Origin: Candidatus Kapaibacterium sp. | Lineage (GTDB): Bacteria; Bacteroidota; Ignavibacteria; Kapaibacteriales; UBA2268 | Assembly: GCA_032027125.1 (NCBI GenBank) | Contig: JAVSMQ010000001.1 | Coordinates: 3,241,620 to 3,305,619, forward strand | Direction: 5' to 3' | DNA length: 64,000 nt | Shown: positions 1,824 to 63,203 of the stretch, in pieces | How positions within the stretch are numbered: the first letter of the stretch is position 1 | How the letters are laid out: each line of letters opens with the position of its first letter | The notes under the pieces: generated by a model | The model's input: the letters and a program-made list of their open reading frames with translations, nothing else | What the model was told of the DNA's origin: nothing | Database searches by the model: none | Program-made: the position numbers and the translations under genes

Positions 1824-3467
1824 TTACTTCTTTCTCCCTGACTCCAACAAGTCTAATGAATCTATCTGTTGCTGCTCAAGGAATTCATTTATATCACCCA
1901 TATATTCCTTAATCATTCCTTTTTTGAATTCAATAGTTTTGCTTGTTAATCCTTCAAGAAACTCTCTGTCGTGCGAAACAATAATCAAAGTACCTTTATA
2001 ATCAATCAGTGCATTCTTAAGCACATCTTTTGATATCATATCGAAGTGATTTGTCGGCTCATCGAGAATCAACACATTGATTGGCTGAAAGAGCATTTTG
2101 CAAAGACTTAAACGGGATTTTTCACCGCCGGAAAGTACTCTCACTTTTTTGTCAATTGAATTGCCGCTAAACAGAAATGCTCCGAGCATTGCACGTATTT
2201 TCTTTCTCATTTCCCCTTGGGCAACTCTGTCAATTGTTTCAAAAACTGTTGCGTCAGGGTCAAGAGATTCAGCCTGATGCTGAGAAAAATAACCGATGCT
2301 CAGATTTGCACCCGATTCCAAAACTCCCTCATAATCCATAATACCGGCTAAAATCTTTGATAATGTGGACTTACCTTCACCATTTTTGCCGACAAAACAA
2401 ACTTTTTCGCCACGTTCAATTTCAAAATTTATATCATTTAAAACAAGTTTTCTGTCATATTTTTTGATGAGACCCTTAGTCTCAAAAATCAATCTGGATG
2501 AGCGCGGGGGCTCAGGAAATGAAAAACGCATTTTGGATACATCTTCTTCTTCAACCTCAATCAAATCCATCTTCTCAAGCGCCTTAACTTTTGATTGAGC
2601 TCTGGCAGAAAATGCTGCTTTGGCTTTAAAACGTTCAATAAACCTTTCCTGCTGGGCTATATTTTTTTGCTGATTATTATATGCCGAAAGCTGCAGTTCT
2701 TTCTGGGTTGCTCTTTCCTGAACAAATCTTGAGTAAGGATACGGCAAATCATAAATTTTACCCAAAGAAAACTCAATGGTTCTATTGGTAATATTATCAA
2801 GGAATCTTTTATCGTGCGATACAATCATAATCGCGCCCTGATAAGTTTTCAGAAATACTTCAAGCCAGCGTATTGATTCGATATCAAGGTGGTTTGTCGG
2901 CTCATCAAGTAAAATGCAGTCATTCTGATTTAGAAGAATTTTTGCAAGATGAACACGCATCTGCCAGCCGCCGCTGAATTCATTCATATCCCTTGAAAAG
3001 TCACTACGTTCGAAACCAAGCCCAATCAGCACCTTTTCAATTTCCGCTTCAATAGACTGTCCGCCCAGATGATGGAAAAATTCACTTGCTTCTGTTAGGT
3101 TTTCGATGATTTTCATATACTCATCGGATTCATAATCGGTGCGTTCTTCAAGTTCTTTGGAATACCGGTTAATATCTTCTTCCAGTTTTTTAAATTCATC
3201 CAAAGCACTTTCAGCTTCTTCATAAATGGTTTTATCAGAATCGGTTTTGATTTCCTGCGGTAAATATCCGATTTTATATTTATTGGGTATTAAAATTTTA
3301 CCGCTTTCGGGAGATTCCAAACCGTATATGAGTTTCAGCATCGTTGATTTACCGGTACCGTTTCTGCCTATAAGACCGATTCTGTCATTTTCACCGACAG
3401 ATATAGATACATTGTCGAATAAATAACGTCCGGCAAAGTGAATTGAGACATTTTGTATATTTAGCAT
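1824..3467 (-). CDS. ABC-F family ATPase (two tandem ABC domains, no TMD)
   Basis: Two Walker A sites (GRNGTGKST; GKNGEGKST), ABC signature LSGG(W/E), two Walker B LLDEPTNHLD/ILDEPTNHFD, and a coiled linker between the domains. Confidence 0.85.
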   Translation of the reverse strand: MLNIQNVSIHFAGRYLFDNVSISVGENDRIGLIGRNGTGKSTMLKLIYGLESPESGKILIPNKYKIGYLPQEIKTDSDKTIYEEAESALDEFKKLEEDINRYSKELEERTDYESDEYMKIIENLTEASEFFHHLGGQSIEAEIEKVLIGLGFERSDFSRDMNEFSGGWQMRVHLAKILLNQNDCILLDEPTNHLDIESIRWLEVFLKTYQGAIMIVSHDKRFLDNITNRTIEFSLGKIYDLPYPYSRFVQERATQKELQLSAYNNQQKNIAQQERFIERFKAKAAFSARAQSKVKALEKMDLIEVEEEDVSKMRFSFPEPPRSSRLIFETKGLIKKYDRKLVLNDINFEIERGEKVCFVGKNGEGKSTLSKILAGIMDYEGVLESGANLSIGYFSQHQAESLDPDATVFETIDRVAQGEMRKKIRAMLGAFLFSGNSIDKKVRVLSGGEKSRLSLCKMLFQPINVLILDEPTNHFDMISKDVLKNALIDYKGTLIIVSHDREFLEGLTSKTIEFKKGMIKEYMGDINEFLEQQQIDSLDLLESGRKK

Positions 3468-25031: not shown

Positions 25032-25694
25032 TTATTTTTCTTCCAATTTTGTTACTAATGTTTCAACCCAATTCCTAAATCTCGGGCATTTTTCAATAAT
25101 TGCTTCTATTCCAATTTCCTGAGCTATAAGATTTCCATAAACAATCTTGTTGTAATCCTTAATAATATCCAATAATCTTTTTGATGGTGCAGTATTTGGA
25201 TTATCATTTATATCTTCGGGATTCGGGTATTTGTCGATAATATTTTCAATATCTTTAATAACTCTGGGTTCCGAACTCCAAAAAGAATTAAACCCTTTAT
25301 TTGATGAGAATAACAAAGCTTCAAACTCATAAAGTTGAATATAAGGTAGAAATCTGTCGTCAGATATATTATCCTTCATAGCTCTTTCTAATGCTTCTAC
25401 TTTAAGATTTGATGTTCTTAATTTCATTGATTGATCATATTTCGGAACGTTAGTTGGAATTTTAAAAAAATCTACTAAAGTTGAAACGAAAATATCTGAT
25501 TGGCTTTTTAATAATCTATTTACATCATTTTTTAAATGTTCATAATTAACAAATCCACCTTTTTGACTTTTACTAGTTTGAATCTTAATAGGATGTACAA
25601 CATAAATATTCTTTGAGATTAAATAGTTCCGCAGTATGGTTTTTACGAATTCTTCTTCAGTCTGACCTTCAACAATAATAAATAATCGTTTCAT
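25032..25694 (-). CDS. DUF4276-like protein (Toprim-like putative nuclease partner of an AAA ATPase)
   Basis: 220 aa. N-terminal MKRLFIIVEGQTEEEFV (acidic E-G-x-T-E in a beta-strand context, as in Toprim/OLD-type folds). Conserved YEFEALLFS block. Start overlaps the stop of the upstream ATPase (ATGA at 25694). Confidence 0.55.
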   Translation of the reverse strand: MKRLFIIVEGQTEEEFVKTILRNYLISKNIYVVHPIKIQTSKSQKGGFVNYEHLKNDVNRLLKSQSDIFVSTLVDFFKIPTNVPKYDQSMKLRTSNLKVEALERAMKDNISDDRFLPYIQLYEFEALLFSSNKGFNSFWSSEPRVIKDIENIIDKYPNPEDINDNPNTAPSKRLLDIIKDYNKIVYGNLIAQEIGIEAIIEKCPRFRNWVETLVTKLEEK

Positions 25695-26782
25695 TAAGGT
25701 TTGCCTCCGATTACATTCTTTTCCCAGAGTTCACCTATTGTATAATCTTCAAGCCAGTCTTTTAAATTTTCTTTTGATAATCTTTTAAAAACTGACTGTT
25801 TTTCTTCTCTATCCACAACTAAAATATTTTCAGGTTCAAAATTTTCTATTAAATTTACTGATTGTGTTGAAATAATTACCTGAGTTTTTTGTGAGGCACT
25901 CAATATTAACCCTGCAAGTTTATTTATTGCAAAAGGGTGTAATCCCAGTTCCGGTTCGTCAATAATAATCGTCTTTGGTAGATGAGGTTGTAATAATAAA
26001 GTAGCTAAACAAATAAATCTCAGTGACCCATCTGATAAATTATTAGCATCAAAATATGTATCTGTACCGGTTTCTTTCCATTCGATTTTTATAAAATCGG
26101 GATTAAGGGCTAATGGTTTTAAATCAAATTCATTAAAATAAGGTGCAACAGATTTAATTGTACTTTCGATTAAATTAAAATTCTTAGGATATTTATATTT
26201 CAATAAATATAGAAATGCTGATAAATTACTGGCATCCATTCTTAAAAAACTATTATCGTTTATATTACACGATTTCTTTACTTTAGCTGTATTACTTGTG
26301 TCATTAAAATGGAATACTTTAAATCCTCTTAAATAATCGTTAATAAATTTGTATCTACCTGTCTGCTTGTCTTTTAATGAACTTTCTGAATGACCTCGTA
26401 ACCAAGTATCATCTTTCCACTTTGGAGTTTTTTCTTTTTTGTCATAATTTGTATTAAAACCATTTGTCTCATAATCAAAGTAAAATGTTCCTGAATTTGT
26501 AGTATTTAATGATAATTCGTAGCAATTTGTATTTTCAAAGAAAATTTTTGTGTATATCCGATTTGTTACTTTTGAACCAAAATATAAAAGGTTGTCAGCT
26601 CCTCCCTGTTCTAAAGTGTAGTTTTGAAGATTTTTATCATAAATGTTACTTAACATTTCAAAAAAAGATATAAAATTGCTTTTACCCACACCATTAGCTC
26701 CTATTAGTATATTTAGATTTGATAATTCAATTTCTAAATTCCTAATCGATTTGTAACCTTGAATAAGTATTTTATTTATCAT
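25694..26782 (-). CDS. AAA_15/AAA_21-type ABC-like ATPase (OLD/PARIS-AriA/AbiLi-like)
   Basis: 362 aa. Walker A GANGVGKSN within the first 40 aa. ABC-type signature-like LSDGSLRF. Walker B IIIDEPELGLHP. The long insertion between A and B is typical of the SMC/OLD-like AAA_15/21 clade. Confidence 0.7.
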   Translation of the reverse strand: MINKILIQGYKSIRNLEIELSNLNILIGANGVGKSNFISFFEMLSNIYDKNLQNYTLEQGGADNLLYFGSKVTNRIYTKIFFENTNCYELSLNTTNSGTFYFDYETNGFNTNYDKKEKTPKWKDDTWLRGHSESSLKDKQTGRYKFINDYLRGFKVFHFNDTSNTAKVKKSCNINDNSFLRMDASNLSAFLYLLKYKYPKNFNLIESTIKSVAPYFNEFDLKPLALNPDFIKIEWKETGTDTYFDANNLSDGSLRFICLATLLLQPHLPKTIIIDEPELGLHPFAINKLAGLILSASQKTQVIISTQSVNLIENFEPENILVVDREEKQSVFKRLSKENLKDWLEDYTIGELWEKNVIGGKP

Positions 26783-42055: not shown

Positions 42056-42567
42056 ATATATCAAATTCATTAAGCTTATTAAGAATAATTTTAACTGCAC
42101 CGGTTGCTTATCTGATTTATACAGGTGATTTAAATTTAGCAATTATCATTGGAATTATAGCCGGTATAACTGATTTTCTCGATGGATTTTTAGCCAGGAA
42201 ACTAAATCAAATTACTGAGCTCGGGAAAATTCTCGACCCTGTTGCAGACAAAATATTTGTTGCCGTAATAGCCTTAGTAATGATTTTAGTTGATTTAATG
42301 CCGTTATGGTTTTTTCTTGTTGTAATTGCAAGAGATATTTTGATACTTCTGGGAGGATTATATTTATCCCAAAAATATAATCTGATTTTGGCATCAAATT
42401 TCGAAGGAAAAGCAACATTTATGCTAATTATACTTACAATACTCGGAGTGCTTCTCGGTGTGCAGGATGTTGGTTTCTACGGCTATTATCTGTGTCTTGC
42501 AGCATTGATATATTCATTCGGTACATATCTAATCAGGATGATTGAGGTGCTGAGAGAGAGGAAGTGA
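42052..42567 (+). CDS. CDP-alcohol phosphatidyltransferase family protein
   Basis: D-x2-D-G-x2-A-R…G-x3-D-x3-D motif (DFLDGFLARK…GKILDPVADK). Membrane protein. Confidence 0.7.
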   Translation: MNISNSLSLLRIILTAPVAYLIYTGDLNLAIIIGIIAGITDFLDGFLARKLNQITELGKILDPVADKIFVAVIALVMILVDLMPLWFFLVVIARDILILLGGLYLSQKYNLILASNFEGKATFMLIILTILGVLLGVQDVGFYGYYLCLAALIYSFGTYLIRMIEVLRERK

Positions 42568-42583
42568 TGATTTGTTTGAATGA

Positions 42584-43186
42584 TTATCTTGACACATTAT
42601 TAATATCTATGAAACAATTTTCCAACTCTATCATTGCGTTAATAAGTATAACTCTTTTGAAATCAACCAAATCATCAACTAATATTTCTAATGGTTCGAT
42701 TCTTTTCTCACGCAATAATTGTTCTCTTTTCGTTCCCCTGAGCAACGGATTTGCGGGAGTGTAGAGTTTATTCCCGTCATCTAAAACAACATTACAGTAT
42801 GAAGTATCGGTGATTAAACCATTTCGGACTATCAATATTTCATCACATTCGCCGCGGGCTGAAAATAGTCTGTTAATGGCAGTTCTTTCCAAATATTTGA
42901 AATCATATTTCAGATTGTCAGCCTGTACAATTTTCAAAGTTTTAGTTTCATAAATTTTATAAGACAGAAATTCATATTTTTCAATTTTATCCGAATATAT
43001 AATTCTTAATTTATATAGTCCCTGTCCGTACATTGGAAAGATTATTATTTCGCTTAGATCAATTTTAGTATTTGGATAAAATTCGGATAAAGTTCTGTTA
43101 ACCCGCTCCTGATGCAGAGCGAGGTTATATATAATTCCGTTAAATACTTTTATTGATTCAATAAATAGGTACATATACCTTGTCAA
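42584..43186 (-). CDS. class-IV aminotransferase-fold protein, probable aminodeoxychorismate lyase
   Basis: Class-IV fold similarity (…RNGLITDTSYCNVV…). Overlaps a PabB-like gene. Confidence 0.55.
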   Translation of the reverse strand: MTRYMYLFIESIKVFNGIIYNLALHQERVNRTLSEFYPNTKIDLSEIIIFPMYGQGLYKLRIIYSDKIEKYEFLSYKIYETKTLKIVQADNLKYDFKYLERTAINRLFSARGECDEILIVRNGLITDTSYCNVVLDDGNKLYTPANPLLRGTKREQLLREKRIEPLEILVDDLVDFKRVILINAMIELENCFIDINNVSR

Positions 43187-44168
43187 TTAGTTCCTGATAT
43201 TCAGAATTTACTTCACTCATAGACGTAATTCCTCCACCGCTCTTGAATTCGTATCCATCATTGGTTTTTTCTATAAATCTTATTATAACAGCACTATCAA
43301 GATTTTCTCCGTCAAAAGCCCCGAAAACACCAGAATAAAAACCTCTTTCGTAACCTTCTGCTTCTTTGATTATTTCGACGGTTTTTTTCTTCGGTGCACC
43401 GGTAACCGAGCCTGCAGGCAGAAGTTTGTCAAATATATTGCCGAGATTTTCATTATAATTTCCGGGTAAATCACCGCATATTTCAGAACTGATTTGTATC
43501 AACCGTTTATTGCTGGTTTGCAGAAAATCAGCATAACGAAACTTATTTACACGAACATTCTTTGAAACAATCGAAAGGTCGTTTCGGATTAAATCCACTA
43601 TTGTATTATGCTCTGCAAACTCTTTTTCATCATTTAGAATAATATTCAATGCATCGGGTATGTCAGCATCTATTGTACCTTTCATCGGATATGAAGATAT
43701 TTTGCCGTCCCGGATTTTCACAAAAATCTCAGGTGAAAAACAGACAAAATTATCTTTCACAAAAATCTTATATTTAGCTATACTGTGATAAAAGATTTCC
43801 TCAAGTGTAAGATTCAATTCAATTTTTGTTGGAAAAGTTAAATTGAGAAGATAAGAATTGCCGTTAATGATATTATCCTGAACGTATTTAAATGCACTGG
43901 AATATTTTTCAAATGTTACCGGATGTTTTTCAAGTTTAAAATCCGGTATTTCGATTTTGCTTTCTTCAAAATTTTTGGCATCTTCTGTCTGAAATAGTAT
44001 TTCCGAACTATTGATTTCTGTTAAAAGGATAATAATCGGATTTGCAAAATCAAAATCAATAATAAATAAAAAAGGCAGTTTGAGGCTGCCGAATTTGTTC
44101 ATTGTTTGTATGAATTCTGATTTTGTCAATTGTGGTGCTAAATTTTTAGTCAATTCTTTTAGAAGCAT
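43158..44168 (-). CDS. chorismate-binding enzyme (aminodeoxychorismate synthase component I-like)
   Basis: C-terminal chorismate-binding signature …GSVTGAPKKKT…GFYSGVFG. Confidence 0.75.
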   Translation of the reverse strand: MLLKELTKNLAPQLTKSEFIQTMNKFGSLKLPFLFIIDFDFANPIIILLTEINSSEILFQTEDAKNFEESKIEIPDFKLEKHPVTFEKYSSAFKYVQDNIINGNSYLLNLTFPTKIELNLTLEEIFYHSIAKYKIFVKDNFVCFSPEIFVKIRDGKISSYPMKGTIDADIPDALNIILNDEKEFAEHNTIVDLIRNDLSIVSKNVRVNKFRYADFLQTSNKRLIQISSEICGDLPGNYNENLGNIFDKLLPAGSVTGAPKKKTVEIIKEAEGYERGFYSGVFGAFDGENLDSAVIIRFIEKTNDGYEFKSGGGITSMSEVNSEYQELIDKVYVPIY

Positions 44169-44391
44169 CTAAAAGTGTGATTCCAACTAATTCGTCATCT
44201 CTATATCTTAATAATACTCCATCTTTCAACATTTCAGAATCTGATGCTTGCTGCGGTTTTTTATAATTTATATATAAAACATCTGCATCTTTATCATAAT
44301 CTAACCAAAATTTCTTAGTCTGCATTTTTAATAAATGAGGCAACATACCGTAAAATTCGTTAATTGTATTTGTTATTGTTGAGCTTTCCAT
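44146..44391 (-). CDS. DUF2283 family protein (putative antitoxin)
   Basis: 81 aa. …LDYDKDADVLYINYK…VGITLLDASKR matches the DUF2283 pattern. Confidence 0.6.
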   Translation of the reverse strand: MESSTITNTINEFYGMLPHLLKMQTKKFWLDYDKDADVLYINYKKPQQASDSEMLKDGVLLRYRDDELVGITLLDASKRID

Positions 44392-44681
44392 AAAATTTCC
44401 TCATTTTCAATTTTAAGTTTACTTGTAAAATATGCAGTAATTACAAAACCATCTTCCTCTGAAAGTTCTTTATAAACTACTGACATATATTTTTTATCAC
44501 GAATTTCTCTTAATGCTATTTTAGCTTCCCCATATCCTCTTATAACAAAATCAGGAAATTCCAATGTATCAATAATATCATCATAATAGCCGGATAAATC
44601 ATCGTGGTTTTCAACAATATGAAACCATCGTTCTTCCGTCATTCTTATTGGTACTTTATTTACAGAGTTAATAGTTTTCAA
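44373..44681 (-). CDS. DUF4258 family protein (putative toxin)
   Basis: 102 aa. …VITAYFTSK C-terminal block typical of DUF4258. Overlaps its DUF2283 partner by 19 bp. Confidence 0.6.
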   Translation of the reverse strand: MKTINSVNKVPIRMTEERWFHIVENHDDLSGYYDDIIDTLEFPDFVIRGYGEAKIALREIRDKKYMSVVYKELSEEDGFVITAYFTSKLKIENEEILWKAQQ

Positions 44682-44758
44682 ATATTTTTACTTCAATTTT
44701 AGTAGCTAATAGTGATTTAATCTTGATTTAAAAATAACAAAATTCTATAATTGAAAAA

Positions 44759-48578: not shown

Positions 48579-49850
48579 TTGACAGAAAGTACAGAATTTA
48601 TCGAAAAAGCAGTAATCATCTCAGTTATAAGAAAAGGTTCGGATCGTGCAATCAGCGATGAGCATTTGGATGAACTGGAGTTTTTGGTACAGACCGCAGG
48701 TGCAGAGATTATAGAGCGGTTCGTTCAGGAGCTTGCAAAGCCCAATTCTTCTACATTGGTAGGGTCGGGTAAAGCTGAGGAGATTAAGGAGTACATCAAA
48801 GAAAACTCAGCTAATCTTGCAATCTTTGATGATGATTTATCACCTGTTCAGGTAAGAAATCTTGAAAAAATACTCGAAGTGAAGGTTATTGACCGCAGCG
48901 GTTTAATCCTTGATATCTTTGCAAAACATGCACGTACCAACGAAGCTAAAACTCAGGTTGAGCTTGCCCAGCTTCAATATGTTATGCCCCGTCTAACGAG
49001 AATGTGGACTCACTTATCCAAACAGTTCGGCGGTATCGGCACTAAAGGTCCCGGCGAAACCCAGATAGAGACAGACAGAAGGGCAATCAAGCAAAGGATT
49101 CAGATGCTCAAGGAGAAACTTGACGACATCACAAGAAATAAGGAAGTCCAACGAAAGAACAGGTCATCATTTCCGAGATTTTCGCTCGTCGGATATACAA
49201 ATGCCGGCAAATCAACATTGATGAACGTGCTGACAGATGCAGGAGTTTATGTCGAGAACAAACTTTTTGCAACACTCGACACAACCGTCCGTCAGTTTAC
49301 TATGCCTGCCGGTATGTCTGCTCTTCTTTCCGATACTGTAGGTTTCATCCGTAAACTGCCAACCCATTTGATTGCATCATTCAGAAGCACACTTGCCGAA
49401 GCAGCCGAGGCTGATGTAATAGTTCATGTTGTAGATGTTTCTCACCCTTTTTTCAGAGACCAGATTAAAGTGGTTGAGGAAACTCTTGAATCTTTGAAAA
49501 TAAAAAATAAACCGACAATTCTGGTGTTAAACAAGATTGATTTGATTGAGGATTATATCGGTATTAATGCTATTAAGCAGGAGTTTGACAAAAGTATTTT
49601 CGTCTCTGCCAAACGTCATATCAACATTCAGGCTCTTCTCGAAAAGTTTCAGGATGTTTACAACGAACAAAGCAAAGAAATAAAGTTTATTCTGCCCTAC
49701 AATAGAATGGATATGATAGCCATGCTATATAAATGTGCTGAAATAATAACAAAAAATGAGGGTGATGACGGAATTGAATTCTCTGTCCGCGTTCAGCCCG
49801 ATGATTTAGATTTTTTCAACAATAAATTTGGCGGATTTATAAAAAAATAG
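48579..49850 (+). CDS. hflX: GTPase HflX
   Basis: HflX N-domain plus G-domain (GYTNAGKSTL, DTVGF, NKID). Confidence 0.9.
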   Translation: MTESTEFIEKAVIISVIRKGSDRAISDEHLDELEFLVQTAGAEIIERFVQELAKPNSSTLVGSGKAEEIKEYIKENSANLAIFDDDLSPVQVRNLEKILEVKVIDRSGLILDIFAKHARTNEAKTQVELAQLQYVMPRLTRMWTHLSKQFGGIGTKGPGETQIETDRRAIKQRIQMLKEKLDDITRNKEVQRKNRSSFPRFSLVGYTNAGKSTLMNVLTDAGVYVENKLFATLDTTVRQFTMPAGMSALLSDTVGFIRKLPTHLIASFRSTLAEAAEADVIVHVVDVSHPFFRDQIKVVEETLESLKIKNKPTILVLNKIDLIEDYIGINAIKQEFDKSIFVSAKRHINIQALLEKFQDVYNEQSKEIKFILPYNRMDMIAMLYKCAEIITKNEGDDGIEFSVRVQPDDLDFFNNKFGGFIKK

Positions 49851-49924
49851 ATTGAAAAATTTGGATAAATAATTAGATATTTTAAATTTATAAAAAATTG
49901 AATGAATGAATTCTGCATACAATA

Positions 49925-50020
49925 ACACACCCCCTAACCCCCTCTTATTAGAGGGGGAACTAAGATTATATATATCAATGGCTTATTCCCCCTCTATCAA
50001 GAGGGGGTTAGGGGGTGTGT
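49925..50020. repeat. GC-rich nested palindromic element, copy 1 (33-bp inverted arms, each arm an 8-bp-stem hairpin)
   Basis: Left arm ACACACCCCCTAACCCCCTCTTATTAGAGGGGG (49925-49957). Right arm CCCCCTCTATCAAGAGGGGGTTAGGGGGTGTGT (49988-50020). The right arm is the reverse complement of the left except for the 4-nt loop. 30-bp AT-rich spacer. Confidence 0.85.
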
Positions 50021-50196
50021 AGTGAATTCAAGCAAAAACTCACTGAATAAGAACTTTTTCCAATTGACATTATACGCCGACGGGGGATTAAAGGGGTGGA
50101 TTTTTTGATTTCCACAATATTATTATTTTGCAATGAACAATAGAGAATTTTTAGATTTTGTTTTTTTAAGAGATACATGAAGATTACCTGAATTAA

Positions 50197-50230
50197 AACC
50201 CCACCCCCTGCCCCCGCCAGCGGGGGACAA
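50197..50230. repeat. solo/half copy of the GC-rich element (CCCCACCCCC…CCCCCGCcagCGGGGG hairpin)
   Basis: AACCCCACCCCCTGCCCCCGCCAGCGGGGGACAA shares the CCCCACCCC lead and an internal 6-7-bp GC hairpin with the arm of the 62886 copy. Confidence 0.6.
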
Positions 50231-50354
50231 TTAGTCACCTGAAAAACTGTCTGCCTTGATTTTTTTCAGAGGAACAAATCTAAAAGTGCGGTCTGATAAG
50301 ATGGATTTTAGTTAGATATCAATTATTGAAAGTTTTGACATAATTTCGAATTAA

Positions 50355-53300
50355 ATGAATAAGCAACTTAAAAATATAGAAAAATTACTCAAGCAAAGCG
50401 AATCTTTTAAAAATATAATAAGCCGTCTCGAAACCGAGAGCGAAGTGCGGATAAGAGATGCTGCTGGTTCTCTGCTGAGTTTGATGATTACATCAATAAG
50501 CGAAACAACAAACCGTAAAACAGTTTTTGTATCGAATAATATTGATAAATTAGATGATATTTATCATGATATAAAACTGATTGGTTTTGAAAGTCCGCTC
50601 AATTTGGTTAAAGAGCCGCAAGCAACTTTAAGAAGCAGGGTTAACAACACAGGCAGCGCCCTTGACTGGCTGATTGAGGGATTGATGTCTTTCAGCAGGA
50701 GTGAGTCAGGAATTTTACTCTGCCAACCTGACATATTTCAATATCAAATTCCAAGCAATGAAATTGTCGAAGGGCATTACAAAAAGATTGAAAAAGGGCA
50801 GACTTTTGATTTTGATTCGTTTATAAAAGAGTTGATTCTAAACGGGTTCGAGAGAATGGATTACGTTTCGGGTCAGGGACAAATTGCTGTTCGGGGCGGT
50901 ATAGTTGACTTGTTTCCAATAGGCTGGGATAATCCTGTCAGAATTGAATTCTGGGGAAATGACATTGAATCATTAAGGGAATTTGAAGTAATTTCGCAGC
51001 GAAGCATTCGTGAATTTGACAGCATTGAGTATCTTGACAGTATGTTCAGCGATGGACCTGATAATGAAGATTCCGATAAAAGTGCAATTGATTTCATTGG
51101 TGACGATATTCTGCTGATGATTGACGAAACTGTTGATACGGAGGAGCTTAATAATATTATAACGGGACATGATTTCAAGAAAATATTCTTAAGTCCTGTA
51201 GGAAGTTATAATCTTGGAATTAAATCTTTCAGACAGCCGCAATTTGCGAGTTCGATAAAATTCTTTATAAGTGAAATGAACAAGTTTGCTGTTGAAAATT
51301 ATAAAATATTTCTTGCCTGCGAAGGACATATTCATCTTGACAGATTCAAAAACCTTGTTTACAGTACTTTAGACGACCAAATTGAGAACGCCGAATCAGA
51401 TAATTATTTGAGTCCGAAAGTTCGTGAAAAGCTGCTTATCTGGGACACTGTGTCTTTATCACGGGGATTTTTCAGCGAAGAGCTCAAAGTTGCCTATTAT
51501 ACCGAGCATGAGGTATTTGAAAGACACAGAATTTATGATACTCAGCAAAAAAAGAAAAGCAAAGGATTAACTATTAAGGAATTGCAGGACCTGAGAATCG
51601 GTGACTATGTTGTTCACGAAGATAAAGGCATTGGCATATTCGACGGTTTCCAAACTATTACAATCGCTGATTCAAAACAAGACTGCGCCCGGGTAAGGTT
51701 TGCTGACGGAGATATGCTGTATGTTCATTTGAATTATATCGGCAAATTAAGTAAATACTCTGCTCAGGAAGGTTCGGCTCCGGTACTTACAAAACTCGGT
51801 TCCGGAGAATGGCTCAGACGAAGGGCAAAAACAAAGAAACGTCTGAAAGATATAGCCCGCGATTTGATAAAACTCTATGCAGAACGCAAAGCTCAGAGAG
51901 GATTTGCTTTTCCGGCAGATACAATCTGGCAGAAGGAATTTGAAGCTGCTTTCATTTATGAAGATACACCCGACCAGGTCTCCTCAACCGAAGATGTCAA
52001 ATCAGATATGGAAAGTATTTCTCCGATGGACAGGCTTGTATGCGGTGATGTAGGATTCGGCAAGACTGAAGTTGCAATAAGGGCTGCATTCAAAGCTGTT
52101 CAGGCTGGCAAACAGGTGGCGGTGCTTGTGCCGACTACGATTCTTGCCCAGCAGCACTATATGTCATTCAAAGACAGATTAAGCAAGTATCCGGTTAATA
52201 TTGATGTAATTTCCAGATTCCGTTCTAAAAAAGAGCAGTCGCAGATTACCGAGAAATTGCAACGAGCCGGAATTGATATTTTAATCGGCACTCATAGAAT
52301 TTTAAGCAAAGATATAATATTTAAAAATCTTGGTCTGCTTGTGGTTGATGAAGAACACAGATTTGGAGTCAGCCATAAAGAAAAACTCCGTCAGATGAAA
52401 GCAAATGTTGATACCTTGACTATGACTGCAACACCTATACCGCGAACACTGAACTTTTCGCTTATGGGAGCGCGCGATTTGAGTCTTATCGAGACTCCAC
52501 CGAGAAACAGAATACCAGTATTAACAGAAATTCTTGAGTGGGATAATAATGCTATCGTTCAGGCGATTAACAGCGAAATTGAACGAGGCGGACAGGTATT
52601 TTTCGTAAGTGACAGAATTGATGATATTGAAAAGATTGCCGCCGAAATGAAGACACTGCTGCCGCATCTTAACTTTGCAGTAGGTCACGGGCAGATGAGA
52701 CCATCCGAACTTGAAGACATTATGGAAAAATTCATCGAAGGCAAGTATGATGTACTTGTGGCTACCAAAATAATCGAGTCGGGTATTGATATACCAAATG
52801 CAAATACTATTCTGATTAACCGAGCCCACAATTTCGGACTGGCAGAGTTATACCAGCTTAGAGGCAGAGTAGGACGCTCTAATGTACAGGCATACTGCTA
52901 TCTGCTTATTCCGCCTGCTCATAAACTGCCGCAGAAATCAATTCAAAGGCTGCAGGCAATCGAGGAATTTTCCGAACTTGGCAGCGGATTTAAACTCTCT
53001 ATGCGTGATATGGAAATTCGCGGTGCAGGAAATTTACTGGGTGCTGAACAAAGCGGATTTATCATTGATATCGGATTTGAATTATATCAAAAAGTATTGG
53101 GCGAAGCAGTTAACGAACTCAAAACAGGTGAATTTGCAGATATTTTCGGGGATGCTGAAGTTGATGACAAACCCAAATATCTTAATGAAGAAATTGTGAT
53201 TGAAATTGATGAAGATGCTCTTTTTCCGGCAGATTATATCAGCGGCGATACAGAAAGATTTATGTATTACAAAAAACTATATACTCTCAATGATAATTTT

Positions 53301-53651
53301 GAACTTGATGACGTTATCAAAGAAATTACCGATAAATACGGAAAACTTCCGAAAGAAGCACGGAATCTGATATTTGTTGTCAGGCTTAGAATTGCTTCAA
53401 TGGCTACAGGTTTTTCAAGAATTATAGTTAAAAAAACCAAACTTATTTGTGAATTTCCATCTCGTGATTTAAAAGATTATTATGATGAAGTTTTCCCGCA
53501 AATTATTGACTATCTGAACCAGACAGACGGAATAATGTTAAATCAGAGCAAAGAAAAATTATTTCTCGAAATACCGCTTGATAACAGAAGCCGGGCACTG
53601 GAATATATCTGGAAAATAAAGAGAATCATTGAGATGAGTGGGGAGAAGTAA
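50355..53651 (+). CDS. mfd: transcription-repair coupling factor
   Basis: 1098 aa with UvrB-homology N-terminus. RNAP-interaction and SF2 helicase motifs (GDVGFGKTEVA, DEEHRFG) and TRG motif region. Confidence 0.95.
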   Translation: MNKQLKNIEKLLKQSESFKNIISRLETESEVRIRDAAGSLLSLMITSISETTNRKTVFVSNNIDKLDDIYHDIKLIGFESPLNLVKEPQATLRSRVNNTGSALDWLIEGLMSFSRSESGILLCQPDIFQYQIPSNEIVEGHYKKIEKGQTFDFDSFIKELILNGFERMDYVSGQGQIAVRGGIVDLFPIGWDNPVRIEFWGNDIESLREFEVISQRSIREFDSIEYLDSMFSDGPDNEDSDKSAIDFIGDDILLMIDETVDTEELNNIITGHDFKKIFLSPVGSYNLGIKSFRQPQFASSIKFFISEMNKFAVENYKIFLACEGHIHLDRFKNLVYSTLDDQIENAESDNYLSPKVREKLLIWDTVSLSRGFFSEELKVAYYTEHEVFERHRIYDTQQKKKSKGLTIKELQDLRIGDYVVHEDKGIGIFDGFQTITIADSKQDCARVRFADGDMLYVHLNYIGKLSKYSAQEGSAPVLTKLGSGEWLRRRAKTKKRLKDIARDLIKLYAERKAQRGFAFPADTIWQKEFEAAFIYEDTPDQVSSTEDVKSDMESISPMDRLVCGDVGFGKTEVAIRAAFKAVQAGKQVAVLVPTTILAQQHYMSFKDRLSKYPVNIDVISRFRSKKEQSQITEKLQRAGIDILIGTHRILSKDIIFKNLGLLVVDEEHRFGVSHKEKLRQMKANVDTLTMTATPIPRTLNFSLMGARDLSLIETPPRNRIPVLTEILEWDNNAIVQAINSEIERGGQVFFVSDRIDDIEKIAAEMKTLLPHLNFAVGHGQMRPSELEDIMEKFIEGKYDVLVATKIIESGIDIPNANTILINRAHNFGLAELYQLRGRVGRSNVQAYCYLLIPPAHKLPQKSIQRLQAIEEFSELGSGFKLSMRDMEIRGAGNLLGAEQSGFIIDIGFELYQKVLGEAVNELKTGEFADIFGDAEVDDKPKYLNEEIVIEIDEDALFPADYISGDTERFMYYKKLYTLNDNFELDDVIKEITDKYGKLPKEARNLIFVVRLRIASMATGFSRIIVKKTKLICEFPSRDLKDYYDEVFPQIIDYLNQTDGIMLNQSKEKLFLEIPLDNRSRALEYIWKIKRIIEMSGEK

Positions 53652-53655
53652 TAGA

Positions 53656-53916
53656 CTATTCGTAATGAGTCCACATTTTAAGTATTTTAATTTGCTTAGT
53701 TTCATCGAAAATTTGATATACCATTCTATGTTGGTTATTAATTCTTCTGGAAATGAATCCTTTCAATCTTCCTTTCAAAAATTCATATTTCGGTGGGTAA
53801 ACAAAAGGGTCTTTTGAGATTATTTCAAGCAGATATTCTACATTTTTCTTTAAACCTGCACTTGCAATCTTTTTTGCATCAATTCGGGCTTGATGAGTAT
53901 AATATATTTCCCACAT
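53656..53916 (-). CDS. YoeB/Txe-family toxin
   Basis: 86 aa. …LKGRLKGFISRRINNQHRMVYQIFDE…HYE matches YoeB (…L.G.WSRRI..EHRLVY…, C-terminal H-Y). Confidence 0.75.
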   Translation of the reverse strand: MWEIYYTHQARIDAKKIASAGLKKNVEYLLEIISKDPFVYPPKYEFLKGRLKGFISRRINNQHRMVYQIFDETKQIKILKMWTHYE

Positions 53917-54129
53917 TTACCAATCCAATGATTTTGAGCAATTTTTTAAATCTTCTTGAGAAGCAGTTACAATCGAATCCACGATTCCGGGAATACTCTC
54001 CAAATATTCAGTATCATTTTCCTTATGAGATTTTGCTTTTAGAAAGATTGCATAGTCGAGTAAATCTTTTAGATAATAATATGGCATATTGTTGGTCACA
54101 TTTATTATATCTGACTGCATAGTATTCAT
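53917..54129 (-). CDS. antitoxin partner of YoeB (Phd/YefM-like C-terminus)
   Basis: 70 aa directly upstream, abutting with no gap. C-terminal DTEYLESIPGIVDSIV resembles YefM/Phd ETxYLLxSPxNxxxLxxSI. Confidence 0.5.
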   Translation of the reverse strand: MNTMQSDIINVTNNMPYYYLKDLLDYAIFLKAKSHKENDTEYLESIPGIVDSIVTASQEDLKNCSKSLDW

Positions 54130-54214
54130 TTTTATCGCCTTAATTTAATTTGTAAATATTTTTTAAACGTATTTTCTGTACAGATATTTTGATTTATTAA
54201 TCTTAAAACAACAA

Positions 54215-54263
54215 CTTTTATCATATCATTATCTCCAATAAACGAATGCTCAAAAGTACAAAT
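54215..54263 (-). promoter_or_regulatory. conserved ~45-bp cassette-leader element, copy 1 (upstream of the YefM-like/YoeB operon)
   Basis: Minus-strand reading ATTTGTACTTTTGAGCATTCGTTTATTGGAGATAATGATATGATAAAAG. Shared with the copies at 55177-55225 and 56161-56196. Contains a GGAGA-N5-ATG with a short MIKV… leader ORF. Confidence 0.6.
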
Positions 54264-54485
54264 TAAAACGTTTATAATTCACAGAGTTTTAAAAATAGAG
54301 TTATTTCTTTTGAAAATATTGGAAATAGTAATTAAATCAGTAATTAGTTGCTTTAACTTTTAAAAGTCAAATAGTTTTAAATCCTCTATAAAAATAAAAT
54401 CCTTTTTGTTTAGGGTAAAAAGCTTATAATTATATTTAATTGCAGTAGCAGCTATCAAACAATCAGGAATTTTTAATTTGTGACT

Positions 54486-54749
54486 TTAACAATACTTTTT
54501 CATTAACTTAAGAAATCTATCATTTATGCTTTGATTTATTGAAACAACATTTAGGCTATCAATATCATTACAAATTTTTGTAAGTTCACTTTTATTAAAG
54601 GCACCATAAATCAATTCAGCAGCAGTTATTGAACTTATTGCAATTTTTTCAACTGATATTTGTTGTAAATTCTTTGCAACCGCTAAGTTATCTTTATAGA
54701 ATTCAATTATTACATCTGTATCGCATAAAATCATTTCTATATTTTCCAC
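54486..54749 (-). CDS. PIN-domain protein, short (possibly truncated VapC-like toxin)
   Basis: MILCDTDVIIEF matches the N-terminal PIN motif (first Asp). Only 87 aa, so the distal catalytic Asp residues are probably missing. Confidence 0.45.
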   Translation of the reverse strand: MENIEMILCDTDVIIEFYKDNLAVAKNLQQISVEKIAISSITAAELIYGAFNKSELTKICNDIDSLNVVSINQSINDRFLKLMKKYC

Positions 54750-54988
54750 GCTTCTTTCCTTAATTGCATGGCATCAATATTTCTGTTTTTCCAAATCCCC
54801 TGAGAATTCAGAAAATTATGCTTGGATTTGTTATTTTTTAAATCAATACTTATTTTTTCTTCTGAACCATTTATTTTGGCAATTTCAATACCTAATTTCC
54901 TTGCTAAACTAAGAATCAGTTCCATATCCGATATTGAATTACTTTTTAATAAAACCGCTTCCATGATAAGTCCATTATTTAATTTCAA
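54737..54988 (-). CDS. small protein upstream of the PIN gene (putative VapB-like antitoxin)
   Basis: 83 aa, overlaps the PIN ORF by 13 bp. Partner role inferred from position only. Confidence 0.35.
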   Translation of the reverse strand: MKLNNGLIMEAVLLKSNSISDMELILSLARKLGIEIAKINGSEEKISIDLKNNKSKHNFLNSQGIWKNRNIDAMQLRKEAWKI

Positions 54989-55176
54989 AATACTAATTTA
55001 AATTAATCAACGCTAAGTAATACTTTTTATTATTTTTTAAAATTATTTACCGGTACTTTTTATCAAATACATATTAATAAAGATTGCCTTTTCTGTCTTG
55101 AAAGTAAAGATATTATCATGAGTAACTATATAAACCGAATAGGCAAACTCTGAATCACACTGATTTATATCTTTAA

Positions 55177-55225
55177 CTTTTATCATATCATTATCTCCAA
55201 AGAACAGATGCTCTAAAGTACAAAT
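55177..55225 (-). promoter_or_regulatory. conserved cassette-leader element, copy 2 (upstream of the VapB-like/PIN operon)
   Basis: Minus-strand ATTTGTACTTTAGAGCATCTGTTCTTTGGAGATAATGATATGATAAAAG. Followed by a ~48-codon MIKVKDINQ… leader ORF. Confidence 0.6.
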
Positions 55226-55308
55226 AACTGAATTTTTGGCAAAAACCAGAATAACAAGAATAGATTTGTAATATAACCACTTTGATATATTGTTCTAATA
55301 ATTAAATT

Positions 55309-55650
55309 TCAAAATAATTTGAAATTAATAATTTCAGTATTCAAAATATCATCACCGTTAGTTACAATTTCCAAAAGATCAATTCTACCATTAGTGATAT
55401 TTAAAACAAAACTAAGTTCATTTTCTAAAAGATCTATGGTTAAGCATTTTGTTGAAGTCACTAACACATTAACATCATTAAATTCAAAATATTTAGAATA
55501 TTCAAAATAGACGTATATCCCAACTCCTGTATATTCTCTACTTTTTATATAAATATGAGGGAAGTGAATTTTCAAAAATGGATAATTGCTTTCATTGTCT
55601 TTAATTATTGCTTTTAAAAGTTCAATTTCCAAATTGTTTAAACTATTCAT
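55309..55650 (-). CDS. hypothetical protein downstream of the MNT gene (non-HEPN partner)
   Basis: 113 aa. No Rx4-6H HEPN motif or other recognisable signature. Confidence 0.3.
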   Translation of the reverse strand: MNSLNNLEIELLKAIIKDNESNYPFLKIHFPHIYIKSREYTGVGIYVYFEYSKYFEFNDVNVLVTSTKCLTIDLLENELSFVLNITNGRIDLLEIVTNGDDILNTEIINFKLF

Positions 55651-55713
55651 TTTAAAGTCCTTTTCTACTAAATGAAGTTAAAGTTATTTTGCCATTTATA
55701 ACTCTACTGCTTA

Positions 55714-55986
55714 TCAGGATTCATATATGACTTTACCGTATTTGGTAATTATTCTCATAAAGGGGTCGTTATAATCAAGGGGAGTGATATCAACAGGTAT
55801 TTTGAGCATTTCTTCTAATTTACTACCAAACAGAAATAAGTTTAATCCCGGAATATCGCAGGCTAAATCAATATCATTACAATTTTCGGGATTATCAAGG
55901 GCTGACCCAAACAAAATAATTTTCTTTACATCAAATTCTTTTGCTTTTTCTCTAATATTTCTAATATAATCTTTTTTAAATATCAT
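55714..55986 (-). CDS. minimal nucleotidyltransferase (MNT) family protein
   Basis: 90 aa. ILFGSALDNPENCNDIDL is the G-S…D-x-D pol-beta NTase motif. Confidence 0.7.
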   Translation of the reverse strand: MIFKKDYIRNIREKAKEFDVKKIILFGSALDNPENCNDIDLACDIPGLNLFLFGSKLEEMLKIPVDITPLDYNDPFMRIITKYGKVIYES

Positions 55987-56160
55987 TATTCAAATCTATT
56001 TTATATATTGACTACCTATATATAGACTATGAGTAATTATTTTTATTATTTTCAATCGGTATTTTAAGCACACATATTCTGCGAAATTACATAATGAACA
56101 TTTTACGTTTTGATTCAACTCAAACTCCGAATCTCACTGCGTTCTACTTTAGCCGCTTCC

Positions 56161-56196
56161 CAATCATTATCTCCAAAGACCGGATGCTAAAAATAC
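56161..56196 (-). promoter_or_regulatory. conserved cassette-leader element, copy 3 (upstream of the MNT operon)
   Basis: Minus-strand GTATTTTTAGCATCCGGTCTTTGGAGATAATGATTG. A partial copy sharing the GAGCAT/TAGCAT…TTTGGAGATAATGAT core. Confidence 0.5.
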
Positions 56197-56419
56197 TTAT
56201 TTCTGAATTTATGGTAAAATATAATTTTAAGAATTCATTTGTACTTCTTTCAACAATATTCTGCACAGGATTTAATTCCGTTTTATTTGTTTTGTTATTG
56301 TATGACAATACTCTATCTCCCGCTTTTTATTTTATCAATAGTCAGACTTGTAAATGAATTAAACTTTAAATTGATTGATTATCGTCTAATGAAGAAATTA
56401 TTAATCAATTTAAAAGAAT

Positions 56420-62658: not shown

Positions 62659-62885
62659 ATTCTGTTAAATGAAATATATTGAATGTAAAATTTAAGTAAC
62701 GAATCAAACGGAATATAATTTATAACTTTCCAAAAATGACCGTGTTTATATTTGATTCCAAAATAATAAATCAAAAAGCAGTATATAGTTCCCGCGTGTA
62801 TCATATTGATGAATAGTATCTGAACGAAAAGTAGCAAATATATAGATTGTAAAGAATTGCAAACATTTTATCCCGCGAAGAATTA

Positions 62886-62973
62886 AGACCCCACCCCAAC
62901 CCTCCCCAAGGGGAGGGAGTAGTCAGAGCAAGGTTTTAAAGCCCTCCCCTTGGGGAGGGTTGGGGTGGGGTCT
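62886..62973. repeat. GC-rich nested palindromic element, copy 2 (perfect 32-bp inverted arms)
   Basis: AGACCCCACCCCAACCCTCCCCAAGGGGAGGG (62886-62917) and its exact reverse complement CCCTCCCCTTGGGGAGGGTTGGGGTGGGGTCT (62942-62973). 24-bp spacer. Each arm contains its own CCCTCCCC/GGGGAGGG hairpin. Confidence 0.9.
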
Positions 62974-63203
62974 GTTAATATTAAGTGATTTTTCAAAATT
63001 TACAACATAATTAACTTCTTTTAAAATATGAAAATTGGGATGTTTTCGTTCAGCCACTAAATATAAGAAAATACAGGAAAATGACAAACGAATCAAAATA
63101 ATTGAAACAAAACATTAGAAAATGGTTACTTTTGTGAATTATAGAAATTAAAAATATAATTTAGAATTTTTGTTTATCCTTAATTATTTAAGTGATTTGA
63201 AAT

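Follow-up and report, generated by a model that had tools for sequence, protein, structure and literature searches.

The window examined here, meaning the whole stretch of 64,000 nucleotides analysed (G+C content 33%), comes from Candidatus Kapaibacterium sp. (GCA_032027125.1, contig JAVSMQ010000001.1, positions 3,241,620 to 3,305,619), and it carries three sites of G/C-rich repeat arms that we call E1, E2 and E3. Its metagenome source is contig Ga0220604_1048211 (103.8 kb) of JGI metagenome 3300021189. The genes hflX (48579-49850) and mfd (50355-53651), both identified by the Pfam domains of the called genes, are separated by 504 nt, which agrees with the long non-coding gap of about 500 bp that an earlier note on this DNA had pointed out. 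The gap houses the inverted doublet E1 (49925-50020), which begins 75 nt past the hflX stop codon, a decayed arm that the earlier note had not listed (50075-50099, plus strand) and the solo arm E3 (50199-50226), where the earlier note had seen a half-element near 50197-50230. The second inverted doublet, E2 (62887-62972), lies between dnaX (minus strand) and ddl (plus strand), which are transcribed divergently; this is the recurrence of the architecture that had been noticed near 62886-62973. The arms occupy three intergenic sites in two spacers, and two of these sites are inverted pairs.

The arms of E1 are 35 nt long and 94% complementary, and they enclose an AT-rich spacer of 26 nt (49960-49985). 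The left arm (49925-49959, minus strand) reads on the plus strand as the clamp ACACACCCCC, the linker TAA and the hairpin CCCCCTCT-tatt-AGAGGGGG, and the right arm (49986-50020, plus strand) as the hairpin CCCCCTCT-atca-AGAGGGGG, the loop TTA and the mirror third strand GGGGGTGTGT. As had been claimed, the arms are complementary throughout, apart from the inner hairpins, whose 4-nt loops (TATT and ATCA, read on the plus strand) do not match. E2 has arms of 31 nt with perfect complementarity and a spacer of 24 nt (62918-62941); its left arm (62887-62917, minus strand) consists of the clamp GACCCCACCCC, the linker AA and the hairpin CCCTCCCC-aa-GGGGAGGG, and its right arm (62942-62972, plus strand) of CCCTCCCC-tt-GGGGAGGG, the loop TT(G) and the third strand GGGGTGGGGTC. 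The motif strand of E3 is the minus strand, and the plus strand reads CCCCACCCCC tg CCCCCGC ca GCGGGGG. The decayed arm, CGCCGACGGGGG attaaa GGGGTGG, is of the E3 subtype and 85% identical to 50215-50227; it fails our arm finder and was recognised by self-comparison and by eye. The stems and first loops measure 7-8 bp and 4-6 nt in E1 and 7-8 bp and 2-4 nt in E2, the stem of E3 is 6-7 bp long, and no hairpin contains a mismatch.

All arms follow one rule, which had escaped the earlier note: the outer clamp is a mirror copy of the G-rich arm of the hairpin, with T or A placed opposite A, and the arm as a whole has the order Y-loop-R-loop-RH. On the minus strand the left arm of E1 becomes CCCCCTC taataa GAGGGGG tta GGGGGTG, and the rule reads CCCCCTC / GAGGGGG / tta / GGGGGTG in E1 and CCCTCCC / GGGAGGG / ttg / GGGTGGG in E2. 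The sequences of E1, E2 and E3 differ, yet all three strands stay in register in each. The four arms of E1 and E2 show no hairpin or triad mismatch in the arm finder, and E3, which is found when G is allowed in the Y segment, has one non-canonical triad, T opposite a C-G pair. In the window the finder for such three-part arms returned four perfect arms, and 30 block shuffles yielded not a single one. As had been stated, stretches of at least five C or G are concentrated at the element: ten of the 21 in the 64 kb fall inside 49930-50226. A 76-codon open reading frame (ORF) at 50008-50238 (minus strand) was considered as a coding sequence and rejected; it was not called as a gene and consists of translated arms.

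By their sequence, the doublets E1 and E2 and the single arm E3 fall among the class II G/C-rich intrastrand triplex motif repeats, the class to which E. coli BoxC, PIT and TM(ECO), names for one and the same dispersed, intergenic and often inversely paired repeat, belong. The motif was first seen in E. coli as BoxC, was found again as the potential intrastrand triplex (PIT) element by Hoyne and Maher (Hoyne et al. 2000; Hoyne and Maher 2002, both as cited in PMC4666352), and was described as TM(ECO) by Holder et al. (2015; PMC4666352). The latter authors counted 23 copies in MG1655, all intergenic, without strand bias and including five inverted pairs; they found no mobility genes associated with the copies and no link to gene function, and the isolated G-rich strand formed a very stable triplex. 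Triplex folding in vitro, as seen by circular dichroism (CD) and imino nuclear magnetic resonance (NMR), is known for the E. coli oligonucleotides only (PMC4666352).

The ITxF definition of that study asks for a hairpin whose stem measures 6-15 nt with no more than one mismatch and whose first loop has 1-6 nt, followed 3ʹ by a mirror G-rich segment after a loop of 1-6 nt. The hairpins and third strands of the window arms lie within these limits, with no triad mismatch in E1 and E2 and one in E3, and the arms are likewise intergenic, dispersed, multi-copy and partly arranged in inverted pairs. The strict TM(ECO) consensus, CCCTCNCCC N3-6 GGGNGAGGG N3 GGGNGAGGG, is not matched: the stems CCCCCTC(T) of E1 and CCCTCCC(C) of E2, 7-8 nt long, have a single interruption each (C4-5 T C2-4). 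Since the window arms fit the definition of the class and miss the strict consensus, they form a separate subfamily of it. The two sets share the C-rich strand with its G-rich complement and mirror third strand, a TTA-like loop of about 3 nt, the lack of strand bias, strain-variable spacers, and inverted pairs with outside clamps and spacers of 20-50 nt. They differ in that the E. coli pairs combine one arm with the loop TTA and another with CCG, whereas the window pairs use the same subtype twice and form a perfect long palindrome, and in that the host is an AT-rich Kapabacteria genome and not a proteobacterium. Of 5426 complete E. coli genomes, 5414 had TM(ECO) copies; the median was 18 places, and no annotation lies beneath the copies. 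At one E. coli locus we read the same doublet layout as in E1 and E2 (clamp-linker-hairpin, 46-nt spacer, hairpin-linker-clamp). Repeats of Methanomicrobiaceae (Chashchina et al. 2021, PMC8044849) resemble the window arms in having GGGG-T-GGGG / GGGG-A-GGGG tracts beside a complementary C-tract and in being intergenic and multi-copy, and their oligonucleotides were in a hairpin/triplex/G-quadruplex equilibrium in vitro; however, their C-tract lies 3ʹ of the G-tracts (class I), whereas in the window arms it lies 5ʹ (class II).

The earlier note had also proposed that E1 can fold as one long stem-loop, and the calculated folds bear this out. As RNA, the plus strand of E1 gave one long stem of -72.3 kcal/mol (z = -12.0, 0/200 shuffles as good) and the minus strand -69.8 kcal/mol (z = -10.4, no shuffle as good); as DNA, both strands reached about -40 kcal/mol (z about -10, no shuffle as good). 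Such stability as RNA on both strands, so close to the end of hflX, would suit a bidirectional terminator or an RNA-stabilising hairpin downstream of that gene, or a structured small RNA. We consider a role at the RNA level quite improbable, and the terminator module suggested earlier was not borne out. No T-tract follows E1 or E2, a terminator and promoter scan gave nothing convincing, and the lone terminator-like prediction concerns a sub-hairpin whose tail is poor. The genes on either side of E2 diverge, E1 is missing from the same spacer in strains about 96% identical to the window, and the E. coli copies have no strand bias (PMC4666352). In the summary of Hoyne and Maher (2002) given in PMC4666352, PIT elements had neither terminator nor promoter activity. 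Rfam, at gathering thresholds over the whole window and permissively over 49800-50400, returned only generic long-hairpin matches to miRNA precursor models. E1, E2 and E3 are DNA-level elements without a coding or RNA-gene role.

To see the rule outside the window, an E2-type arm pattern was scanned over one genome per species and an E1-type pattern over metagenomes, and each scan gave at least 120 loci; the figures that follow refer to the matches listed from them. The E2-type matches include Prevotella, Alistipes, Hymenobacter, Nostoc, Sphingomonas, Hyphomicrobium, Planctomycetia, Anaerolineae, Clostridia, Saccharibacteria, an Ignavibacteria metagenome-assembled genome (MAG) and Rahnella. 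The copies resemble one another far beyond what the search patterns demanded, and the mirror rule is kept at positions left free by the patterns in about 240-250 arms from many phyla. Among 122 distinct E1-type metagenome arms, a C after the Y core was accompanied by C before the clamp in 69/69 cases and a T by A in 24/27; at the second position the combinations were CC-CC in 18/19, CT-AC in 14/15 and TT-AA in 7/8. Among 120 parsed E2-type genome arms the base interrupting Y was T in 116, the effective second loop was 3 nt in 92, and the lengths of the C-runs on either side of the linker co-varied (Spearman 0.54, p = 2e-10). This covariation is the code of a purine-motif triplex with G.G-C and T.A-T triads; in a Kapabacteria relative (locus L293, described below) A.A-T triads replace T.A-T. 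The earlier suggestion of a structured, dispersed family rather than a product of chance is thus upheld by the recurrence within the window, by the two scans and by the empty shuffles.

Inverted pairs with the clamps outside were common: with single-hairpin forms discounted, the genome scan showed about 27 of them and the metagenome scan 25. Doublets with separate hairpins had spacers of 3-147 nt elsewhere, and solo arms were as common as pairs. Head-to-tail tandem arrays of arms were also seen (L246 1146-1620, with four copies at a 64-nt period; L236 2251-2620; L111 1786-3440). A group of related GC-rich (0.57-0.65) metagenome contigs (L151, L152, L166, L192, L200, L212, L238, L243, L258 and L263) carries one arm, CACCCCCTAACCCCCTCG…CGAGGGGG, at a fixed position beside a 429-residue HTH-like protein, a 189-residue protein and an HNH-type endonuclease; these contigs look like one family of phage- or plasmid-like elements. 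A clamp-only pattern scanned over viral contigs returned mostly chance hairpins in GC-rich phages.

The G-tracts of the arms call to mind the idea of Kaplan et al. (2016) for the E. coli copies, namely a switch between G-quadruplex, hairpin and duplex that regulates neighbouring genes. The E2 arms do contain the four-tract motif (GGGG A GGG TT GGGG T GGGG; at least 3 G per run, loops of 1-7 nt), and there are CD data for the E. coli motifs (PMC5100583). However, the E1 arms lack it, having only two long G-runs (GAGGGGG TTA GGGGGTG), so quadruplex potential is not common to the family, whereas the mirror rule is kept in all subtypes. In addition, NMR favoured a triplex over a quadruplex for TM(ECO), and no link to gene function was found in E. 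coli (both PMC4666352). We regard such a switch as very improbable.

The layout of two inverted hairpin units with a short spacer, accompanied by singlets, is likewise that of repetitive extragenic palindromic (REP) sequences, bacterial interspersed mosaic elements (BIMEs) and REPINs, which are intergenic, multi-copy, and made of short hairpin units whose inverted doublets form a long hairpin. The doublet would then be mobilised in trans by a REP-associated tyrosine transposase (RAYT), an IS200/IS605-like Y1 transposase encoded elsewhere in the genome. The BIME-type layout is the part of the earlier REP-like proposal that stood. On the other hand, there is no GTAG-like tetranucleotide 5ʹ of the hairpin in the window or in the listed arms, no Y1_Tnp domain (PF01797) and hence no RAYT, nor any other transposase, among the genes called over window positions 3944-64000, and none of the clusters formed by the 2145 arm-neighbouring ORFs of 240 loci was transposase-like. 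REP sequences evolve jointly with the RAYT that serves them and vary from species to species, whereas the arms are near-constant across phyla; moreover, the mirror third segment is not a REP feature and plays no part in REP recognition. Mobilisation of this kind is, in our judgement, the least credible of the explanations considered. The comparison with miniature inverted-repeat transposable elements (MITEs) did not hold either: the arms are inverted, but no target-site duplication is seen in the flanks (…CAATA / AGTGA… at E1, …TTAAG / CTGTT… at E2). The proposal of a cognate protein was a reasonable one; the candidate, however, is not a RAYT and is described below.

Among named genomes, those nearest to the window by HflX are Candidatus Kapabacteria MAGs. 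Sister strains were represented by contigs with an HflX that is 100% identical by local alignment (P0001, a cluster separate from P0002 of the window) and with DNA about 96% identical to the window. Their homology to the window ends 3 nt past the hflX stop codon and restarts 11 nt ahead of the mfd start, so that the segment 49854-50343 is replaced by an unrelated, armless spacer of 254 nt; in a relative with an 80% identical HflX the hflX-mfd spacer is 15 nt. In a relative with a 97% identical Ddl (L275) there is no E2, and homology to the window stops about 85 nt from it. A response-regulator/histidine-kinase gene, not dnaX, stands upstream of ddl there (L275 2490-2845 against window 62659-63203), so the dnaX-ddl junction, the site of E2, is a synteny breakpoint. 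This relative was reached through its Ddl homologue; exact-protein look-ups of DnaX, the OmpA-like protein and AhpC led to nothing beyond the source contig and very short contigs, and so to no sister-strain dnaX-ddl spacer. The coincidence of the E1/E3 and E2 loci with breaks in homology fits the published association with variable spacers, since TM loci vary more between E. coli strains than control loci do (PMC4666352).

Both observations, the strain variability in E. coli and the homology breaks at both window loci, would also be expected if the repeats were driven by their structure, with no protein partner. In the model of Holder et al. (2015), a triplex, hairpin or cruciform stalls replication or repair and causes local rearrangement, so that copies arise and decay through instability; nuclease genes of the DUF559 family, described next, would then simply gather in the same spacers. 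We judge this unlikely, though it deserves more weight than the readings discussed so far, on account of what was found around the arms in other genomes.

The 2145 ORFs around arms in the 240 fetched loci were clustered, and one cluster was unified by the DUF559 domain (PF04480, E about 1e-32). DUF559 occurred in 11 of the 240 loci, which had been selected by their arms, and in 10 of these 11 an arm lay within 100 nt of the gene, usually on both sides. A second sample was drawn by protein only. It consisted of four contigs of viral origin and of ten loci on plasmids or chromids, each from a different genus (Picosynechococcus, Azospirillum, Synechocystis, Photobacterium, Deinococcus, Sphingomonas, Pseudanabaena, Neisseria, Sinorhizobium and Methylobacterium). 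Here arms were found within 200 nt of the DUF559 gene in 12 of 14 cases with the improved finder, and in all 14 with two short-stem variants read by eye. The first form of the finder, with a fixed 7-nt stem, had overlooked arms with long and short stems, and the improved form still skips the cyanobacterial stems of 5-6 nt, which were read by eye. The commonest arrangement in this sample was [doublet]-ORF-[doublet], with bracketing doublets in Sinorhizobium, Sphingomonas, Pseudanabaena, Azospirillum and others. As to the background, 21 of the 25 arms in 156 kb lay within 300 nt of a DUF559 gene, a zone that makes up about 3% of the sequence, and about 97 kb of Kapabacteria loci without a DUF559 gene contained no arm. 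A repeat that spreads by its structure alone leaves this proximity unexplained, together with the ordered doublet-ORF-doublet layout with near-identical flanking doublets and the near-identity of arms across phyla.

In the DUF559 proteins the residues D, E-x-D and H are invariant across phyla, and among solved structures 3hrl comes closest. In a survey of PD-(D/E)XK nucleases, DUF559 is placed with Vsr and a homing endonuclease (PMC3424549), and no match was obtained to known defence-system models. Many of the DUF559 proteins from metagenomes (P0241-P0360) are encoded on contigs of 0.5-2 kb, and several exact sequences recur on 10-30 contigs, which is what repeat-flanked multi-copy genes that break assemblies would produce.

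The clearest Kapabacteria example is locus L293 of the MAG GCA_026390695.1. A DUF559 gene of 122 residues (2501-2869) is flanked there by two near-identical doublets of 88 nt (2348-2435 and 2918-3006) with spacers of 20-23 nt, and E2 has exactly the same hairpin, CCCTCCCC/GGGGAGGG. E. coli K-12 has ycjD as its sole DUF559 gene. A decayed arm lies at the ycjD stop codon, and the last residues of the protein, RSPSP, are translated from arm sequence; a TM(ECO) arm follows about 170 nt after the stop. Between these two BoxC-type arms, the 3ʹ end of ycjD is repeated in part (L278 16041-16830, fabI-ycjD-sapF). Some strains hold the eefRABCD operon in place of ycjD (PMC12817139), and in these the homology ends 15-45 nt ahead of the outer ycjD arm, which makes this arm part of the ycjD-specific segment, whose start lies about 45 nt before the arm. 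Near the junction of the eef+ allele (L297, about 880-905) we noticed what may be a fragment of a decayed arm, AGGGGGAGGTTGGGGA.

The best explanation overall, and in our view a probable one, is that the window elements are triplex-motif repeats and that the doublet is the cis repeat of a selfish DUF559 cassette. The wider claim is that a pan-bacterial selfish cassette with a YcjD-type, Vsr-like nuclease lies behind the BoxC/PIT/triplex-motif repeats in general, which would be its cis-acting ends and its derivatives without the gene; this we hold tentatively, leaning slightly to the doubtful side. The cassette would have the layout doublet-ORF-doublet, its ORF encoding the DUF559 nuclease (Vsr-like, PD-(D/E)XK). 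When single-stranded, the G-rich strand may form a hairpin with a reverse-Hoogsteen third strand, and the whole doublet may be extruded to give a cruciform or one long hairpin. A cut or nick made by the nuclease at a doublet would be repaired from a doublet-ORF-doublet donor, and the gene would thereby be copied into a solo doublet, the two doublets of the donor serving as homology arms; recombination between them would remove the gene again and leave a solo doublet. The copies in the window would then be gene-less doublets, either empty targets or scars, marking intergenic spacers of fast turnover. The three-strand mirror rule may reflect what the nuclease, or the structure that it needs, recognises. 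Such a cassette would explain the bracketed layout, the surplus of gene-less doublets and single arms, and the sameness of arms across phyla, the arm sequence being near-constant from E. coli to cyanobacteria, Deinococcus, Bacteroidota, Planctomycetes and Kapabacteria.

Several points weigh against the cassette. We found no pair of filled and empty alleles with a clean junction, and therefore mobility is something that we infer. A sensitive search with a hidden Markov model in six frames, over both spacers and the whole window, gave no DUF559 gene or remnant better than E = 0.3. The ycjD gene of E. coli occurs as a single copy at one locus, and 38% of the genomes lack it, whereas BoxC arms are present in nearly all; as they persist where ycjD is missing, the arms need no gene for their maintenance, and this is also what structure-driven instability would lead one to expect. 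No triplex signal was seen on duplex DNA or in vivo in E. coli (PMC4666352). Breaks in homology are frequent in this part of the Kapabacteria genome, five in about 20 kb, so that the two coincidences with arms are weak statistics. The thresholds of the arm finder are arbitrary and the independent DUF559 sample is small (16 loci). Finally, the association could reflect a preference of DUF559 genes for insertion at such repeats and not a functional unit.

The proposed cassette has a parallel in the Vsr-like homing endonuclease I-Bth0305I (PDB 3r3p; PMC3424549), which is also encoded by a small free-standing nuclease gene, belongs to the same fold clade and sits in repeated or conserved DNA; both would spread by break repair on flanking homology. 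I-Bth0305I, however, resides in phage genes, in the setting of a group I intron or intein, whereas the DUF559 cassettes, as known from sequence alone, have palindromic triplex-motif doublets at both ends.

The cassette may also settle in frame, in inter-domain linkers of essential genes such as those of leucyl-tRNA synthetase (LeuRS) and UvrA. DUF559 together with flanking arms was observed in frame within four conserved proteins (L148 1785-4853, minus strand; L090 2-3046, plus strand; L095 1151-5125, minus strand; L163 3732-7670, minus strand). The hosts are LeuRS, in the gap between the catalytic and editing parts, UvrA, an IcmF-like mutase, in the B12/MeaB gap, and a Type ISP restriction enzyme. 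The arms translate there to Pro/Gly-rich linkers such as HPSPTLPQEKGE, and in L163 an extra doublet interrupts the DUF559 domain itself. These insertions are reminiscent of the Rickettsia palindromic elements, short palindromic repeats that can sit in frame within protein-coding genes. To our knowledge, the sequence of the latter is unrelated to the window arms, and we know of no nuclease gene associated with them.

Since the 1990s the BoxC/PIT/triplex-motif repeats have stood as orphan elements. The window contributes an ordinary example of this known and unexplained class, which now extends to an AT-rich Kapabacteria genome, and the covariation of three strands (G with G, A with T or A) is comparative evidence that a triplex-compatible arrangement is maintained. 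The tight association with DUF559, including ycjD of E. coli, makes the 30-year-old question of BoxC/PIT approachable by experiment, namely by asking whether YcjD binds or cuts BoxC DNA. If the functional link is true, it would define a very widespread small mobile element and would account for the hypervariability of intergenic spacers, for the breaking of assemblies at these repeats and for the in-frame, Pro/Gly-rich insertions of conserved proteins. We found no literature that links DUF559 or YcjD to the BoxC/PIT/TM repeats or reports the covariation of triads, in a search that left subscription literature mostly uncovered, and we claim no priority.

Other features of the sister strains were seen in the course of the comparison. 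Their allele of the hflX-mfd spacer (L134 11276-11529, also in L135-L139) holds a repeat-like unit of another kind, …CCATGATTTGTCACTCTGAAGCGGAGCGAAGAGTCCATGATTT…, with the direct repeat CCATGATTT at its borders, and this unit may be a further small dispersed repeat of the lineage. Downstream of mfd lies a strain-variable island of toxin-antitoxin-type genes (window 53656-56300, L134 14843-17600), with YoeB, PIN and Polbeta in the window and HepT-like/Polbeta and RhuM in the sister strain, and further small strain-variable islands were found at window positions 42563-42617 and 44147-44725. At 25032-26782 the window has an AAA_15/SMC_N ATPase gene beside a DUF4276 gene, and the sister strain has a second AAA_15 ATPase with a 191-residue protein inserted elsewhere (L134 2310-4176); it is possible that AAA_15/DUF4276-type pairs are strain-variable gene pairs of the defence type.

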